A DNA stretch of 64,000 nt, taken from positions 45,430 through 109,429 of IMG/VR virus record IMGVR_UViG_3300031413_000005; one strand, given 5' to 3'. This DNA is from a virus. The notes below the pieces were generated by a model. It was not told where the DNA came from. It saw only the letters and a list, made by a program, of their open reading frames with translations, and made no database searches. Positions 1-40,066 of this stretch are shown piece by piece; positions within the stretch are counted from its first letter, which is position 1, and every line of letters starts with the position of its first letter. The translations under genes were made by a program, and so were the position numbers.

Positions 1-411
1 CTGGATCACGTCACCTTCCGTGCGACCGCGGCGCGGTGCGGTGCGGGTGGACTCGTTGAGCTCCAGGCCGAAGACCTCCCACATCGGCAGCTTGATCGCC
101 ATGCCGGGGCCGACCTCTGCGATCAGCTTTGCCTGGCGCTCGTTCTGAAGGCGCTCCTCGTTCTTGCGCGCGGTCTCGCGATCGATGTGCTGGCGCATCG
201 CTGCGTCGTATGCGGCCGACGTCAGCGGTGCGTCGGGAAACTGCTTGCGATACTCACCAACGAGAACCTCGGGGTCGGCCGCGCCGAGCTCACCGGTCTG
301 CTGGAGGTGCTTGCCGATGTGGTGGCTGGCGGCGCCGCACATGCGGCAAACGACCTGCCCATCGGGCGCGAGGTCGGTAGAAACTGGCTTGGTCATCGTT
401 GCGGTCGACAT
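1..411 (-). CDS. CobS/MoxR-like AAA+ ATPase, N-terminal part (runs off window)
   Basis: Not in the ORF track. ATG at 411 with GAGGAG RBS; MSTATMTKPVSTDLAPDGQVVCRMCGAASHHIGKH... (CxxC..H..H Zn finger). Lies directly downstream of the CobT-like vWA gene. The AAA domain itself is outside the window, so the call rests on synteny. Confidence 0.6.
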   Translation of the reverse strand, partial: MSTATMTKPVSTDLAPDGQVVCRMCGAASHHIGKHLQQTGELGAADPEVLVGEYRKQFPDAPLTSAAYDAAMRQHIDRETARKNEERLQNERQAKLIAEVGPGMAIKLPMWEVFGLELNESTRTAPRRGRTEGDVIQ

Positions 412-475
412 TCTGGTAACTCCTCGTGAACCGTCTTGCGCGGTGCATTCTCTCTAGCAGCGTTTTGAGCGCTTG

Positions 476-499
476 TGCATGGGTGTTGTTGACCATGCA
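476..499 (-). repeat. 24-bp dispersed motif
   Basis: tgcatg-ggtgttgttgac-catgca. Confidence 0.8.
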
Positions 500-509
500 C
501 AAAGAGCCG

Positions 510-1826
510 TCATTGAATCAAGAATTTTTTCAGCACGCCCATCAGCTTTGCGGGCATCTCGGCCACCTCGTTGATGACGAGCGAGTTAGGATAATAGCCC
601 TGCACGCCAGCGTATTTGATCCCGACACCGACCACATCGATCCCGGCCGCGGTGACCTCACGGACCATCTCGCCGGCATGCTGCTGGTAGGGGTGCGTCG
701 CGGGATTGACGCCGCGGTTCTTCTTGGGGTCAGCCTTGAGCGCAGCAGCGTCGGGGTGGAACACAGGCCCCATTGGTTTGCCGTCCGACATGACGATAAG
801 CATTTTGCGCTTCTGCGGTTGGGCGAGAAGACGGCGCGCTGCAAACTCGACCGAGCAGCCCTCGATCGTTCCGTTCATCGTGATGGCGCTGCGAGAGTCG
901 TGAACGGCAGCAAAGCGGCGCTGGACATCGAGATTGAAGGGCTCGTGAAATTCCTTGAAGCGGGGATACTCGAGCGGCGTCCAGCGCGTGATCGGCGCGA
1001 TGTCGTGCGCGCGCTGAACCTCGGCCTGATAGTCCGCGGTCGGCTGGAAAGTCATCGCGGTGGTATAGCCGACAACCTCGAAAGGGACGCCCACGCGCGT
1101 CAGCACAGATCCGAGCGCGTAAGCGGCGCGGACCGCAAGCGACATGGCTGACTGGTCCCAAGTGGACTGACCGCCGTTCTGCATCGAGCCCGAGCAGTCC
1201 AGCAGCAGCGTGATCGCGGTGTCGAGGGCAGGGGCCTCTTGCTTGCGGCTGAATACGCGATCGTCACCCGAGAGGACGCGATGCAGGTTCGGCGCGTGAA
1301 TGCGACCGCGGCGCTGACCGGGCAGGCGAACCGATTGCGTCTTGGCGGCGATCAGTCGCGTGATGTCTTTCTGAAGCGGACCGACCGCGGTTGCCGTTGC
1401 CGCCTGGATCTTGTCGAGCGTGACGCCGCGAGTGTTAATGTCGACGAGCTTGTCCAAGTCTTTCGTGAACACGCGGTAGGCGTGACTGCGATCCGAGAGC
1501 TGACGCTCGATGAACACGGACAGCATGTCGTCCATGTCGACCACGTCGGCTGCGCTGAACTCGATCGGCGTCTCGGGCGCATCATCGGCCCCGCCACCAG
1601 AGCCGCCCTCGTCCTCGATGTCGACACCGTCGTCAGCTTCCTCCCACGCGCTCAGCTGGTCCTCGAGCTCGCGCATCTCCTTGAGGTGATCCGCGAACGC
1701 GGTGCTGGATTTCTCAAGCGCCTTGAGCGCGGGCTTCTGCGCTTCAGGCCAGTCTTTCGAGTAAGGTCCGAACGTGTCGACGAGGTCGATTGCGGCGTCG
1801 ATTGCGATATTGAGGCTCACCGTCAT
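510..1826 (-). CDS. CobT-like C-terminal vWA (MIDAS) domain protein
   Basis: RGRIHAPNLHR...VFSRK, LLLDCSGSM (DxSxS), NGT, MLIVMSDGKP, VVGVGI. Confidence 0.85.
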   Translation of the reverse strand: MTVSLNIAIDAAIDLVDTFGPYSKDWPEAQKPALKALEKSSTAFADHLKEMRELEDQLSAWEEADDGVDIEDEGGSGGGADDAPETPIEFSAADVVDMDDMLSVFIERQLSDRSHAYRVFTKDLDKLVDINTRGVTLDKIQAATATAVGPLQKDITRLIAAKTQSVRLPGQRRGRIHAPNLHRVLSGDDRVFSRKQEAPALDTAITLLLDCSGSMQNGGQSTWDQSAMSLAVRAAYALGSVLTRVGVPFEVVGYTTAMTFQPTADYQAEVQRAHDIAPITRWTPLEYPRFKEFHEPFNLDVQRRFAAVHDSRSAITMNGTIEGCSVEFAARRLLAQPQKRKMLIVMSDGKPMGPVFHPDAAALKADPKKNRGVNPATHPYQQHAGEMVREVTAAGIDVVGVGIKYAGVQGYYPNSLVINEVAEMPAKLMGVLKKFLIQ

Positions 1827-3157
1827 TCCTTCATCAGCTTGGCGAGACCACGACGGGCCTCGCGCAACATTTCTTCCACTCGGTCAGCGCTCACGTTCAA
1901 TTCGCTCGCGATCTCGGTGACCGATTTCTTGCGTTTCTTATGCAAGAAAAGAGCGCGTCGAAGGGTGGGATCAAGCAACCCCAGCGCTTCCGTCATCGTG
2001 CGGTTGCGTTTCCCACCTTCGCCTGGGGCTGCGTCGTCTTCGGCGTCGGGCTCGTCGGCATCGTCTGGACGATCGCCCTCGTCGCGATCGCTGTCGGCAT
2101 CAGGAACAGGCTTGTCGCCTGGCTGATCGCTGGCTTCAGGTTCGCCTTCGTCACCGTCGCTATCGCCAGGCTCGTCATCGCCAGCATCATCAGCAGGATC
2201 GTCACCAGAACCGTCACCTTCCTCTGTGGCGTCAGCGTTATCGTCCCCAGCGGCGTCTGAATCATCTCCGGCATCGTCGTCGTCCTCATTGGTGGGCGAG
2301 CCGTCCTCGCCCTCGTCTGTATCATCGTCGCTCACGTCATCGCCGGGCTCAGAGCCTTCGGCGTCTTCGTCTTCGGAAGGCTCGGTCTCGCTCGGCTCGT
2401 CGTCATGCGTGCCTTCGCTGTCGTCCTCATCAGATCCCTCGCCGGGATCTTGTGAGTCCTCGTCGGCCTCCGGCTCGGGTTCGGGCTCTGGCGGGGCTGG
2501 AGGGGCCGGTGGGGGAGGCGGGGGCGTCAGCGCTTCCTTCAGCTTCTCCACGCACGCCAGCACGTCGTCGTAGGTCTCCATCGCGGCAACCTGCGCCCCA
2601 AAGCCAGGCAGTCGCTGCATCAGCGGCTCAACGATCGACCAGTAGCCCTTTTCGTCCATCAGCTGCTGGAACACCTTCTGCCCGCCAAGCGCGCGCATGG
2701 TCGGCATGAGCAACGCGGAGATCATGCGCTTCGGGTCACCAGACTTTGCGACGTCGTCGAGCATTGGCTGCACGATCAGCGGGAGCCAGTTGACATACAT
2801 GCGCTCAAGATTGTCCTTCGTCCCGGGCAGGTCGCGGGGCAGGAGCTTCTCGAGACGAATGTCCTCGAAGATGTTCGCGAAGGCGCCGCGTTCGGCGTCG
2901 ACCCGGCGATCTGGGATCTTGTCGAACGGCGTGTAGAAGATGTGGCCGACCTCGTGATCGAGGTAACCTTGGAGCGCATCGACGAGCAGCGCAGGGGCCT
3001 CGTCGGGGATCTCGGGCAGATTGAGACGCACGACCTTGCCCGTGTGTGGGTCAGCCGCCACAAACGGAGTTGCACCACGAAAGGTGACGGCTGTGCCCTC
3101 GTTCGTCAGCAGTCGCACGGTCCGTGCAAGTGCGTCCTTTCTCGATTGTGCCTTCAC
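1823..3157 (-). CDS. CobT-like N-terminal protein (HExxH), acidic linker, C-terminal sigma70 region-4-like HTH
   Basis: GYLDHEVGH, NIFEDIRLE, long D/E-rich linker, C-term RRALFLH..KSVTEIASELNVSADRVEEMLREARRGL; ATGA overlap with the vWA gene. Confidence 0.75.
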   Translation of the reverse strand: MKAQSRKDALARTVRLLTNEGTAVTFRGATPFVAADPHTGKVVRLNLPEIPDEAPALLVDALQGYLDHEVGHIFYTPFDKIPDRRVDAERGAFANIFEDIRLEKLLPRDLPGTKDNLERMYVNWLPLIVQPMLDDVAKSGDPKRMISALLMPTMRALGGQKVFQQLMDEKGYWSIVEPLMQRLPGFGAQVAAMETYDDVLACVEKLKEALTPPPPPPAPPAPPEPEPEPEADEDSQDPGEGSDEDDSEGTHDDEPSETEPSEDEDAEGSEPGDDVSDDDTDEGEDGSPTNEDDDDAGDDSDAAGDDNADATEEGDGSGDDPADDAGDDEPGDSDGDEGEPEASDQPGDKPVPDADSDRDEGDRPDDADEPDAEDDAAPGEGGKRNRTMTEALGLLDPTLRRALFLHKKRKKSVTEIASELNVSADRVEEMLREARRGLAKLMKE

Positions 3158-3169
3158 CGTATTCTCCGC

Positions 3170-3193
3170 TGCATGTGTGTCGTTACCTATGCA
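3170..3193 (-). repeat. 24-bp dispersed motif
   Basis: tgcatg-tgtgtcgttacc-tatgca. Confidence 0.8.
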
Positions 3194-3247
3194 CGTCTTA
3201 GCAGACGAGACCGCTCGCGCAAGTTGGCGGGCGGTCTCGATCGGTGG

Positions 3248-3424
3248 CTATAGAGGTTGGTGCGTGACGCGAATGCACACGCCGCCTGGTGAACGGTAAA
3301 TCAACCCCTTGGGGTAGTGAATCGCCACGCCTCCATCGCCCATCACCTGCCGGTGAAGATTCGATGCTGCGGCTTGTTCGTCTATCTCAGCAAACTCATC
3401 GATCGAGATGGCGTCAAGCGCCAT
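3248..3424 (-). CDS. small hypothetical protein
   Basis: ORF MALDAISIDEFAEIDEQ..., co-oriented with neighbours. Confidence 0.4.
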   Translation of the reverse strand: MALDAISIDEFAEIDEQAAASNLHRQVMGDGGVAIHYPKGLIYRSPGGVCIRVTHQPL

Positions 3425-3537
3425 GCCGGCTTCCCATCGACCAAAAGACTCCTGCACCCGCGACTCCTTCCAAGGGGTCGAGACGATGCAGGAGTTGAGG
3501 GAGGATTGCAACGAACAAAACGGGAACGAGTGTTCCT

Positions 3538-4137
3538 TTAGAGGTCCATAATCGCTTGCTTGAGAGCCTTGCGCTGCACCATCGACAGCCCGTTCTTGTT
3601 GATCTCGGGACGCTCGCTCCGAATCATGTCGAGCACGCCCATTTCCGGGACGCTGGCCCAGCGCCGCACTGCATTCCGATCGGCCGCTGCCTCACGGACT
3701 ACCGCGAACTGCTCAGCAGGCATGTCAGCGAGCGGAGCGCCGGATGCGGACTGGAGATCCTCGATCATCAGAGTTTCCTCGTCAACCCGGCCAGAGCGCG
3801 TCTTGGGGTCGCCTGCTGCCTTAGACAGCATGCGCCCGAAAGGTATCTGGGGGAAACGCTGTTCGAGCACGGCGAGCAGAAACTCGGGCGCATCGAGACG
3901 CAGCGTGCGAACGAAGTCCATTGCCCGCTCGACAGGGATTGGTGCTCGTCCGCTTGCCATGTGGCTAATGACCACCGACGACTTGTAGCCGAGCATGCCA
4001 GCTACGGTGCGCTGGCTAGTCCCGCTCTCTCGCTCGATGCGGTCGAGCCCAGCCGCGAACATACGGCAAGCCCGCGTGTTTGCGAGAGGGTAAGAACCCT
4101 CGTCTCGTTGTTCTGCCTTCAGCACTTTCGCTACCAT
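3538..4137 (-). CDS. XRE-like HTH protein, candidate repressor
   Basis: SQRTVAGMLGYKSSVVISHMASGRAPIP HTH; AAGGAG upstream; degenerate 24-bp motif in its leader. Confidence 0.65.
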   Translation of the reverse strand: MVAKVLKAEQRDEGSYPLANTRACRMFAAGLDRIERESGTSQRTVAGMLGYKSSVVISHMASGRAPIPVERAMDFVRTLRLDAPEFLLAVLEQRFPQIPFGRMLSKAAGDPKTRSGRVDEETLMIEDLQSASGAPLADMPAEQFAVVREAAADRNAVRRWASVPEMGVLDMIRSERPEINKNGLSMVQRKALKQAIMDL

Positions 4138-4459: not shown

Positions 4460-4669
4460 GAGAATCTGTTATTGATTCTGTTAAGTAAGTTAAGGTCAAA
4501 ATCGGCTTGCAAAATCAGTCACTTACAAGGGTTTCTGTAAGCGATAGACGAGTCAATGGAAGCGATAGACGAGCCGAATGCAAGCGATAGACGAGTCGAT
4601 ATGCAAGCGAAAGACGAGTCGATCTGGCAAATGTAAGCGATAGACGAGTCGATGTAAGCGAAACGCGTC
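4460..4669. other. plasmid replication origin: AT-rich region plus iteron array
   Basis: 19-bp repeats TG(C/T/G)AAGCGATAGACGAG(T/C)C at 4536, 4557, 4579, 4602, 4632 and a degenerate copy at 4653, spaced 21-30 bp, next to an AT-rich tract 4460-4535 and to repA. Confidence 0.85.
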
Positions 4670-5752
4670 TCACTGCGGCTCGGAGGCTCCCTTTTTGGCA
4701 ACCAGCGACTTCACGAGGTCAGGGAATGAGGCAAAATCGGCCGCGGTGACCGGATCGTCGATATGCTCAGGCGCAAAACGCGGTTCGACTCGTCTTTCGC
4801 TTACATTCGGGGCCGTCTCGACTCGTGTATCGCTTGCAATCTGAGCCGTGCGACGGGTGACTCGTCTATCGCTTGCGTTGGCTCGACGATGGAAGACAAC
4901 CTTGAGTGCCTTCAGCCCGCGGACCAGCTTAGCATCGACCAGCGCGGTGTCGCTCTTGTCGCCAGCAAGGGACAGTGAGATCTGATACTCTGGCAGGTCA
5001 TTTGCCTGAACGATGTCCAGCACCACCTGCTTGAAGTAGCGAGTGTTCTTATCCTCGTACCCGATCTTTTCCGCCAAACGCAGCAGGTTGATCGACCAGG
5101 TAGGTTGAGTGCCGCAGTGTTTGCGCGCCAGCTCGTAGACCCGACGAGCGATCCCCGAGGTAAGCTTGAAATAACCGGCGTCGATTGAGAGGATCGTTCT
5201 GTCTTCGACGATCTGGCGCCAAAGCCAGTCCTCCATCTCGACCTCGACCATGCCGGTCACTTTGCGGCCGTTAGGCAGCTCGCGTTCTGTCAGTTTCCCC
5301 GACTTGATCCACGAGAAGAATCCTTTTTCGTTGGTCGATGCGCCGGTCTTGATGTTGGTTCGGATCGTGGTCGACTGGAGCCGGTCGAGCGCAGCTTCGA
5401 GATCCTGATAAGCTCGACCTCCCGTGGACCGGCCGCAGCTGACGAAGAAGTCGTGGGCGTGGAAGCGAACGCGCTGGGAAACGGGCACTCCCTCATTCAT
5501 GCAGCGGTTAATGTGGCTCGCGACGAAGATCAGGAGATCCTTGTCCCAGATCGTAGCGAGTCCCTCGGGTCCAGGCCGCACCTCGAACCTGACTTTACCG
5601 TCGTCGTAGATCCGCTTCTCCATCACCTTCGTCTTGGAGATTGAGAAAAAGGGGAACTCCATCAGGTTCGTGATGTCTCGGAAGCTGACGCGATCCTGGC
5701 GATCCAGAAAGAGGTCAGGCGTTTCAACGATCTGGTTCACGGGCGCTCCCAA
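4670..5752 (-). CDS. repA: plasmid replication initiator (RepA/RPA family)
   Basis: LMEFPFFSISK, GLATIWDKDLLIF, GRSTGGRAYQDLEAALDRL, YFKLTSGIARRVYELARKHCG; flanked by iterons. Confidence 0.9.
   Translation of the reverse strand: MGAPVNQIVETPDLFLDRQDRVSFRDITNLMEFPFFSISKTKVMEKRIYDDGKVRFEVRPGPEGLATIWDKDLLIFVASHINRCMNEGVPVSQRVRFHAHDFFVSCGRSTGGRAYQDLEAALDRLQSTTIRTNIKTGASTNEKGFFSWIKSGKLTERELPNGRKVTGMVEVEMEDWLWRQIVEDRTILSIDAGYFKLTSGIARRVYELARKHCGTQPTWSINLLRLAEKIGYEDKNTRYFKQVVLDIVQANDLPEYQISLSLAGDKSDTALVDAKLVRGLKALKVVFHRRANASDRRVTRRTAQIASDTRVETAPNVSERRVEPRFAPEHIDDPVTAADFASFPDLVKSLVAKKGASEPQ
4787..4877 (-). repeat. three inverted iterons inside the repA 3' end
   Basis: GACTCGT(C/G)T(T/A)TCGCTT(A/G)C at 4787-4805, 4820-4838, 4859-4877 is the reverse complement of the iteron. 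Confidence 0.85.
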
Positions 5753-5848
5753 TGCAAGCGATAGACGAGCGGGCCTAGCGCGAATGCAAGGGATAGACGA
5801 GCCCTAAATGCAAGCGATAGACGAATCTTTGCAAGGGATAGACGACTG
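5753..5848 (+). repeat. four iterons over the repA promoter/start
   Basis: TGCAAG(C/G)GATAGACGA at 5753, 5785, 5809, 5830. Confidence 0.85.
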
Positions 5849-18149: not shown

Positions 18150-18183
18150 ATACCAGATTGCATGTGTGTTATCTACCATGCAC
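18150..18183 (-). promoter_or_regulatory. 24-bp motif with -10 (34-bp promoter cassette)
   Basis: identical to 22201-22234. Confidence 0.85.
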
Positions 18184-22200: not shown

Positions 22201-22234
22201 ATACCAGATTGCATGTGTGTTATCTACCATGCAC
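22201..22234 (-). promoter_or_regulatory. 24-bp motif with -10 (34-bp promoter cassette)
   Basis: ataccagattgcatgtgtgttatctaccatgcac. Confidence 0.85.
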
Positions 22235-40029: not shown

Positions 40030-40066
40030 ATCATACCAGATTGCATGTGTGTTGCCTACCATGCAC
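40030..40066 (-). promoter_or_regulatory. 24-bp motif with -10, upstream of the portal gene
   Basis: 2 mismatches versus 22198-22234. Confidence 0.85.

Follow-up and report, generated by a model that had tools for sequence, protein, structure and literature searches.

A phage CobT-like adaptor split in two, with an ECF sigma region 4 and a related anti-sigma domain at its cut ends

The stretch of DNA analysed here (the window, 64,000 nucleotides) is the right-hand 64 kb of the 109,429-bp virus record IMGVR_UViG_3300031413_000005, for which completeness is estimated at 98%. At the left end of the window lie three minus-strand genes: two open reading frames, ORF1 and ORF2, which together correspond to a CobT-like protein, and a gene for a CobS-like ATPase (Table 1). 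The first-pass annotation of this DNA had described the two ORFs as translationally coupled through an ATGA overlap, with an HExxH motif and an acidic linker in the first, a von Willebrand factor A (vWA) domain with a MIDAS motif in the second and a CobS-like gene next, and in all of these respects it was confirmed. What sets the locus apart lies at the break itself, where ORF1 ends in region 4 of an extracytoplasmic function (ECF) sigma factor and ORF2 begins, by profile homology, with the domain of an anti-sigma factor.

The N-terminal domain and the CobT_C vWA domain with MIDAS that mark a CobT protein are both present. The first is a borderline match to Pfam CobT (25.5 bits against a cut-off of 26.1) and a clear one to phrog_1576 (E = 5.5e-55); its H68, E69 and H72 are invariant in 47 homologues, and AlphaFold models residues 1-215 with a predicted local confidence (pLDDT) mostly of 87-98 beyond the first ten residues. 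ORF2 matches CobT_C/vWA with 72 bits (E = 6.6e-20), and D210, S212 and S214 of its MIDAS sequence DCSGS are invariant, as is D348. The folds nearest to its vWA domain are those of the Rea1/MDN1 MIDAS (Z 21 and 20.2) and the NorD vWA (Z 19.3); the fold searches used full-length models, and their lists are dominated by vWA for ORF2 and by sigma region 4 for ORF1. The full CobS-like protein has 421 aa (L001 646..1911) and matches AAA_5 with 68 bits, while its CbbQ_C match is sub-threshold here (19.6 against 20.6 bits) and above the cut-off in 7 of 8 relatives scanned. AAA_5 with CbbQ_C is the make-up of CobS/MoxR-class ATPases, and with this lid adjoining a DxSxS vWA protein the locus encodes a MoxR-class AAA+/vWA pair. 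The phage CobS-like proteins also carry an N-terminal extension of about 60-70 residues whose pattern, C-x2-C...H-x3-KH-L, resembles a Cys2-His2 zinc finger. Sub-threshold ROS_MUCR matches (E 0.004-0.06), covering only the zinc-finger part of the profile, were seen at the N-terminus of 5 of 9 such proteins; the truncated copy in the window gives a weak match (E 0.06), and the full-length copy is not among the five. The extension may be a DNA-binding finger on the motor.

The profile of phrog_1576 (729 positions) spans residues 7-382 of ORF1 and 94-437 of ORF2, so that the extra material at the break consists of ORF1 383-444 and ORF2 1-93. Among relatives drawn from viral contigs and bacterial genomes, the two-gene form, its genes overlapping stop to start or lying no more than 6 nt apart, recurs in L003, L004, L006, L012 (Novosphingobium), L013 (Sphingomonas sp. 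NFR04), L014 and L015. Their junctions, formed by ATGA, GTGA, TAATG or a few bases, are of the same kind as those in host sigma/anti-sigma operons. The sigma region-4 (sigma-4) domain stands at the C-terminus of all 47 short ORF1 homologues (335-465 aa) and was found in 0 of 36 single-chain forms (556-836 aa), anywhere in the chain, by a hidden Markov model (HMM) search with filters off. Likewise, the ORF2 N-terminal domain opens 43 of 43 short ORF2 homologues and is absent from the single-chain CobT forms (0/36). No protein above 777 aa with the phage sigma-4 helix-turn-helix was found (weak evidence, per the search tool). Split and domains persist together down to about 30% identity, in the distant L015. 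A contig of an independent leaf-litter metagenome (run X2) spans positions 1537-2400 with 0 differences and no gap; runs X3 and X4 give no coverage of the junction, and no RNA run was listed as holding this stretch. The split is no artefact, being conserved in relatives and bridged by an independent contig, and the two checks named with the first-pass annotation, a survey of homologues for the same split and fusion and a search for assembly error at 1823, thus both came out in its favour.

For the last 75 residues of ORF1, Pfam Sigma70_r4_2 is the best family (24.4 bits against a cut-off of 25.7), as the earlier reading of this C-terminus as ECF sigma region 4.2 had anticipated, and the fold agrees. 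Orthologues score 25.3, 26.1 and 34.8 bits, which makes Sigma70_r4_2 the best family in 4 of 4 copies and places it above cut-off in 2 of 4, and many ORF1 homologues carry precomputed PF08281 or PF04545 assignments. The AlphaFold model (47 sequences) gives residues 388-443 a pLDDT of ~95 and folds them into four helices (388-394, 397-407, 413-420 and 424-443) with the helix-turn-helix of region 4.2, separated from the folded N-terminal domain by the acidic disordered linker. It superposes on SigL region 4, as bound to RslA, with a root-mean-square deviation of 0.5-0.6 Å over 56 columns (Foldseek). Region 4 of sigma factors, mostly of ECF type, fills nearly all of the top ~50 Foldseek rows and the top 20 rows of the VIA aligner (Z 9-11). 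The matches include SigL4/RslA, SigD4/RsdA and sigmaE4 on -35 DNA, and complexes of sigma-4 alone with an anti-sigma factor (3hug, 3vep) are among the closest folds. The ORF1 C-terminus is a genuine region-4 domain of the ECF type, and no other stretch of the genome is Sigma70_r4_2-like.

The first-pass annotation overlooked the anti-sigma domain at the start of ORF2, which is a simpler partner for this sigma-4 domain. Residues 1-62 are modelled as three helices (9-19, 31-40 and 42-59; pLDDT ~95), and the consensus of 43 homologues reads LS..EA.D.ID.YG.D...WP.....L..L...D..F..YV.D.K..D..L..W. A profile search of 1.84 billion proteins returned 117 matches (E 1e-7 to 1e-3), of which ~20 are of ORF2 type and ~90 are proteins of about 90-220 aa (most 140-190) with the domain at their N-terminus. 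Those of the small proteins that were inspected have one membrane helix and a short tail; an N-terminal domain followed by these is the classic build of a single-pass anti-sigma factor. One match is labelled anti-sigma factor RsiW by its source, and the small proteins show weak NCBIfam matches to 'anti-sigma factor' models (NF010501, NF052375) and to Pfam DUF3379. A profile built from 30 of them is present in 42 of 301 Pseudomonadota genomes and reciprocally matches the prophage ORF2 of Sphingomonas sp. NFR04 at its N-terminus (E 3.1e-8). Directly upstream of the small protein, 24 loci have a gene on the same strand, 185-240 aa in most, and all ten upstream genes scanned proved to be ECF sigmas, their regions 2 and 4 both scoring far above the cut-off. 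The ORF2 N-domain HMM matches the anti-sigma ORF in 28 of 30 loci. Aligned by hhalign to the zf-HC2 anti-sigma domains of Sphingomonadales, the N-domain scores 25.5 over 51 columns (P 1.6e-4); 60 column shuffles scored no higher than 10.7, and 29 real-protein decoys no higher than 14.5. The zf-HC2 motif H-x3-C-x2-C is itself absent, with no Cys or His at those positions, and the cellular relatives inspected likewise lack the Cys motif. Pfam detects no anti-sigma family and no zf-HC2 in the N-domain (E up to 10), Protein Atlas returns only generic helical hairpins for ORF2 1-66, and a sequence-profile search of the PDB with the N-domain gave no meaningful match. By profile homology, ORF2 1-62 is homologous to the cytoplasmic N-terminal domain of single-pass anti-sigma factors.

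The two ends can be traced to the same source. Of 28 upstream-ORF matches of the phage sigma-4 HMM, 27 fall at the C-terminus of the sigma encoded there (E 8e-12 to 1e-4), and with E up to 5e-3 the HMM has a match in 28 of 30 loci; sigmas of this source family reach up to 35 bits, against at most 21 bits for zf-HC2-paired sigmas. In five of five whole genomes (3.4-7.1 Mb, with 27-80 scored candidates each), the best match of the phage sigma-4 is the sigma gene directly before the related anti-sigma gene. The anti-sigma family occurs in 40 of 81 Sphingomonadales genomes (E up to 1e-3). As in ECF sigma/anti-sigma operons, region 4 stands at the C-terminus of the first gene and the anti-sigma domain at the N-terminus of the second, the genes meet in a stop/start overlap or short gap, and signatures are shared with the operon family: YG.D...WP and LD..L..W in the anti-sigma domain and LL.R(G/A)RR in sigma-4. 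Unlike such operons, the phage cassette has no region 2, membrane helix or extracytoplasmic part, its domains are embedded in an unrelated protein, and the DNA-facing residues that are invariant in the sigmas have been lost. These profile matches indicate that both cut ends derive from one sigma/anti-sigma operon family. The simplest history would be the insertion of one fragment, running from the 3′ part of an ECF sigma gene into the 5′ part of the anti-sigma gene behind it, into the tether-coding region (that for the linker) of a single-chain CobT-like gene within a clade of Sphingomonas-type phages. The insertion would have cut the adaptor gene in two, leaving a first half that ends in sigma region 4 and a second half that begins with the matching anti-sigma domain, and the stop/start overlap of the operon would have turned into the new gene junction. 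We regard the split, the identities of the domains, their shared origin, and their strict co-occurrence and conservation as established.

Table 1. Features of the split CobT-like locus and of compared loci. Positions refer to the window unless a locus handle is given.
Feature	Position	Strand	Remark
ORF1	3157..1823	minus	444 aa
ORF2	1826..510	minus	438 aa
ATGA stop/start overlap ORF1/ORF2	1823..1826	minus	ORF1 TGA overlaps ORF2 ATG
CobT N-terminal domain, ORF1 residues 1-215	2513..3157	minus	Pfam CobT, phrog_1576, AlphaFold
HExxH of ORF1 (HEVGH, residues 68-72)	2942-2956	minus	
Pro-rich segment, then acidic disordered linker 1, ORF1 216-385	2003..2512	minus	sequence, pLDDT 40-58
ECF sigma region-4 domain, ORF1 386-444	1826..2002	minus	Pfam Sigma70_r4_2, fold
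Zinc-less three-helix anti-sigma-type domain, ORF2 1-62	1641..1826	minus	profile homology, model
Acidic disordered linker 2, ORF2 63-95	1542..1640	minus	pLDDT 41-49 mostly, higher toward end
CobT_C vWA domain with N-terminal extension, ORF2 96-438	513..1541	minus	Pfam CobT_C
MIDAS motif DxSxS of ORF2	1185-1199	minus	
CobS-like AAA+ ATPase, first 137 codons	1..411	minus	gene continues beyond window
24-bp element copy, ORF1 side	3170..3193	minus	12 nt before ORF1 start
24-bp element copy, between ORF2 and CobS-like gene	476..499	minus	64 nt before CobS-like start
CobS-like N-terminal extension	1-411; L001 646..1911; L004, L006, L009, L016, L017	minus (window)	
Sigma70_r2 proteins after cobS	L008 7816-8451; L016 3640-4245; L017 9385-10164; L019 3862-4587; L020 9268-9915		200-260 aa, above cut-off, no recognisable region 4
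Cys-cluster protein	L001 3-530; L004 10139-10705; L016 4194-4796; L017 10119-10820	minus (L001)	
Vcrx089-type ATPase used for comparison	L060 4899-6786		IncC plasmid pCVM22425

Having recognised the region-4 fold, the first-pass annotation went on to propose that the sigma-4 domain tethers the AAA+/vWA machine to the RNA polymerase beta-flap or to a -35-like core within a 24-bp element, which would make the CobST genes a transcription remodeller. The domain is a true sigma-4 fold and keeps the core together with the A/G-R-R motif of the recognition helix, and the family signature ALESLL.R(G/A)RR is echoed in it as ..DLL..ARR. Three positions conserved in the source sigmas are lost, however. 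In the numbering of an alignment of 28 cellular source-family sigmas with 48 phage sequences, R19 of region 4.1 (25 of 28 sigmas) is T, A or K in the phage; S50 and R54, both in the DNA-facing helix and present in 27 and 28 of the 28 sigmas, are replaced by Asp in 32 of 48 phage sequences and by N, Q, E, D or K, respectively. An acidic E-D-E cluster has been gained at or before the start of the phage recognition helix, the first half of which carries a net charge of -2.4, against +2.2 in zf-HC2-linked ECF sigmas and -0.4 in the source family. Neither ORF1 nor, at E up to 1, the whole 109-kb genome gives a match to Pfam Sigma70_r2, and this absence of a region 2, like the loss of the DNA-facing residues of the recognition helix, argues against a functional sigma factor. 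Furthermore, an anti-sigma domain is encoded immediately downstream, and anti-sigma domains normally mask the polymerase-binding face of sigma-4.

The 24-bp element (TGCAT-N14-ATGCA) bears on the same proposal. It occurs in 17 copies in the window, against 1.5 expected, and precedes at least 17 genes on both strands. Copies do stand before ORF1, where a hairpin terminating the upstream gene directly precedes the element, and before the CobS-like gene, as had been noted, but the TAGACN core ascribed to them does not hold: the two local cores are degenerate (GGTAAC, GTCAAC), and TAGAC is found in only five other copies. In the ORF1 copy the core lies 23-28 nt before the start codon, so that if it served as a -35 box the RNA would start inside the gene. 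At least three copies (18159-18182, 22210-22233 and 40042-40065) have the core at the -35 position relative to an extended -10 sequence, TGGTATnAT, which is followed after 7 or 8 nt by an ATG. This arrangement would fit a leaderless-mRNA promoter whose -35 box lies inside the element in an operator-like overlap. The element accordingly looks like a general phage promoter/operator signal and, occurring before at least 17 genes, is not specific to the CobT module. A sigma-70 consensus scan of positions 300-3600 gave no promoter, and k-mer counts upstream of the source ECF sigma genes gave GC-rich words only and no conserved promoter motif. A T7-type RNA polymerase (PF00940) has no match in the genome, which is uninformative as the control genomes gave none either. 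Besides the fold, the retained recognition-helix motif and the core at -35 in the three copies, a transcriptional role could draw on the zinc-finger signal of Ros/MucR type, weak as it is, at the N-terminus of the phage CobS-like proteins and on the Sigma70_r2 gene that follows or overlaps cobS in single-chain relatives (RHEph10, L016, L017, L019, L020). Given the anti-sigma partner, the lost residues, the missing region 2 and the genome-wide spread of the element, we disfavour promoter or polymerase tethering as the reading of this locus and consider it distinctly unlikely.

The architecture of canonical CobST suggests another role for the pair. There, according to two preprints of 2026, the N-terminal (M48C) domain of CobT docks on the small AAA+ subdomain of CobS at the rim of the ring (10.64898/2026.07.21.739949), a finger of the vWA domain inserts into the ring pore (10.64898/2026.10.09.757910, 10.64898/2026.07.21.739949), and the two CobT domains are joined solely by a disordered linker (10.64898/2026.10.09.757910, 10.64898/2026.07.21.739949). 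With the linker as the sole join, a clasp could stand in for this tether. In our favoured reading, to which we give a probability of roughly 0.6, the captured sigma-4 and anti-sigma domains would form a non-covalent clasp that restores the CobT tether, and would not read promoters. The machine would be a phage-type CobS/CobT-like one, a MoxR-class AAA+ ring with an adaptor made of an M48-like HExxH domain docking on the ring rim, a long acidic disordered tether, and a vWA/MIDAS domain engaging the pore. Cutting the linker would remove the tether, and the captured domains, by binding each other as cognate sigma-4/anti-sigma pairs do, would restore the order of N-domain, tether, clasp, tether and vWA, while translational coupling would tend to keep the two halves equal in amount. 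We infer the clasp from the purely disordered connection between CobT domains and from the sigma-4/anti-sigma complexes 3hug and 3vep among the closest folds; the physical binding, like the substrate and the purpose of the motor, is thus put forward at the level of inference. The net charges of the two domains are complementary and consistent with a clasp, sigma-4 carrying +3.8 in the phage against +1.3 in its cellular relatives, and the N-domain -8.4 against -4.1.

Several points weigh against this reading. The anti-sigma domains of cells usually make contact with both region 2 and region 4 of the sigma, and with region 2 absent here the affinity could be lower. One ancestral insertion inherited by a single clade could explain the strict co-occurrence of the two domains. 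The source family is common in the host order, at the frequency given above for Sphingomonadales, so that the captured domains could target host partners. Finally, both canonical CobT domains bind CobS on their own (10.64898/2026.10.09.757910, 10.64898/2026.07.21.739949), and the clasp may therefore be dispensable for assembly. The last point is also where a neutral account of the cassette would begin: with the N and vWA domains each contacting CobS directly, the halves would assemble on the ring independently, and the captured domains would be functionless relics sitting in a disordered linker that tolerates them, as acidic disordered linkers do, their lengths varying widely among relatives. 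The conservation of the cassette, however, is hard to square with such a relic. Mean column identity is 63% for sigma-4 and 55% for the N-domain (seven sequences), at least that of the enzymatic ORFs as wholes (39% for ORF1 over 47 sequences and 50% for ORF2 over 43), although these different sequence sets are not directly comparable; the core and signature residues of the cassette are invariant over 43-47 sequences, and both domains occur in every member, down to ~30% identity. We therefore hold a neutral relic to be highly unlikely.

The frequency of the source family in hosts gives more room to a host-directed switch or decoy, in which the targets of the captured domains would be a host ECF sigma and anti-sigma belonging to that family. 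Sigma-4 of ORF1 would be a decoy to the host anti-sigma, in the way that the sigma-like domain of PhyR is to NepR, and the N-domain of ORF2 would either sequester the host sigma or hand it to the AAA+/HExxH machine; the assembly of the phage motor, or the host stress regulon, would thereby be coupled to the signalling state of the host. In favour of this, 40/81 Sphingomonadales and 42/301 Pseudomonadota genomes carry the family, sigma mimicry has a precedent, with PhyR-type chains among the sequence and fold matches (3t0y, Z 8.3), and the invariant HExxH makes proteolysis of a bound target conceivable. But the two genes are coupled and probably expressed in similar amounts, and their products, being mutually cognate, would mostly neutralise one another; the phage sigma-4 scores only 13-24 bits for the sigmas of Sphingomonadales, against up to 35 elsewhere in the family; and in the lysogen Sphingomonas sp. 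NFR04 the search for the anti-sigma family found no cellular copy (E up to 1e-3). We find host targeting doubtful. A variant that keeps the clasp, and makes it a regulated switch, appears quite unlikely too: competition from a host sigma or anti-sigma factor would open or close the tether and so couple the assembly or targeting of the machine to envelope-stress signalling, or the machine would be aimed at the host pair in order to remodel or cleave it.

PhyR also offers a parallel to the clasp itself. In the PhyR/NepR/EcfG system of Alphaproteobacteria, as in the clasp reading, a degenerate sigma-like domain binds an anti-sigma factor for a purpose other than transcription, and the phage domain shows weak profile and fold similarity to it. 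PhyR, however, has sigma-2-like and sigma-4-like parts as well as a receiver domain and regulates a real sigma factor, with NepR as its partner, whereas the phage cassette has region 4 only and a partner that is not NepR-like. Searches of ORF1 found no receiver domain, and PhyR_sigma-like matches were sub-threshold only.

The closest known system is the single-chain CobT/CobS-related pair of SSU5-like phage-plasmids, Rhizobium phage RHEph10 and Pseudomonas phage nickie (phrog_1576). It shares with the split locus the gene order, the N-domain with HExxH, the acidic linker, the CobT_C vWA domain, the AAA_5/CbbQ_C ATPase and a neighbourhood of replication genes, but its CobT is one polypeptide of 694-836 aa without the sigma-4 and anti-sigma-like domains. 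Several single-chain relatives have a Sigma70_r2 gene after cobS, overlapping it in RHEph10 and L019, whereas the split clade has none there (Table 1). The sigma-like proteins encoded after single-chain cobS give no match to the phage sigma-4 HMM, and RHEph10 gp045 has no match in the phage genome. A protein of about 180-230 aa with a cluster of cysteines, encoded after cobS or after the sigma gene, is conserved in both the split and the single-chain clades; it has an N-terminal PGCFGS...C..C......C and, at its C-terminus, a weak winged-helix match.

Canonical CobS/CobT has the same plan of N-domain, disordered linker and vWA domain with MIDAS, but canonical CobT is a single chain, works with CobN and mostly lacks the HExxH. 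The motif is kept in 48 of 48 split and 47 of 53 single-chain phage-type proteins, against 5 of 47 canonical-type CobT; the other 42 have, for example, HDESLH in its place. Peptidase activity is therefore possible in the phage-type proteins, and the N-domain of the phage may work as a zinc peptidase of M48-like type. No CobN-Mg_chel match was found in the phage genome. The hosts of prophage copies do encode CobN, and use of the host CobN/chelatase by the phage halves is possible. The HExxH and the lack of a phage cobN set the family apart from canonical CobT, and the motor may have a purpose other than cobalt insertion.

A lead on such a purpose comes from vcrx089-vcrx090, the hde pair of IncC plasmids and SXT/R391 elements, which protects incoming DNA from type I restriction (PMC7498323). 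The Vcrx089-type ATPase likewise combines AAA_5 and CbbQ_C and is 33% identical to the phage CobS-like AAA+ module (E 1e-19), and the pair also sits on a mobile element beside recombination and replication genes; an HExxH domain, a sigma/anti-sigma cassette and an N-terminal zinc finger are all missing from it. The Vcrx090-type partner (302 aa) was considered as a counterpart of the ORF2 vWA protein and rejected, there being no similarity. An anti-restriction role by likeness to Vcrx089 is only a lead. In the comparison with this ATPase, ~2,350 plasmid records hold a relative, ~1,000 of them covering at least 80% of the query, and the full-length plasmid matches sampled are of ~100-120 kb, the size of SSU5-like phage-plasmids.

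Elsewhere in the window, a RepA-like gene (4670-5752) lies between arrays of 21-nt iterons (4532-4648 and 5749-5825; core GCGATAGACGAG), which suggests that the phage is kept as a plasmid, that is, as a phage-plasmid. DNA near-identical to positions 1300-2400 is present in phyllosphere and leaf-litter metagenomes of several studies, and these occurrences fit a Sphingomonas-type host on plant surfaces.

None of the parts found at this locus is new in kind, neither the AAA+/vWA pair of MoxR class nor the ECF sigma region 4 and the anti-sigma domain; what is new is a split that carries a captured cognate sigma-4/anti-sigma pair at the break. The literature that we searched holds no description of a split CobT with such a pair, nor did we find in it any such use of an ECF sigma-4/anti-sigma pair. 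Two warnings for annotation follow: 'Sigma-70 region 4' proteins of the ORF1 type are not sigma factors, and a phage 'CobT' with an intact HExxH may be no cobalt-chelatase subunit. If the clasp reading is true, the locus would be a natural case in which parts of transcription factors serve anew as a protein 'snap fastener' between the halves of a divided enzyme subunit; it would mean that a gene may be broken within a disordered linker and still keep its function, and it would supply a natural, ready-made heterodimerisation pair. It also offers a handle on the role of the CobS/CobT-like genes that are widespread in phages and phage-plasmids, as the two halves can be separated, tagged and linked again.

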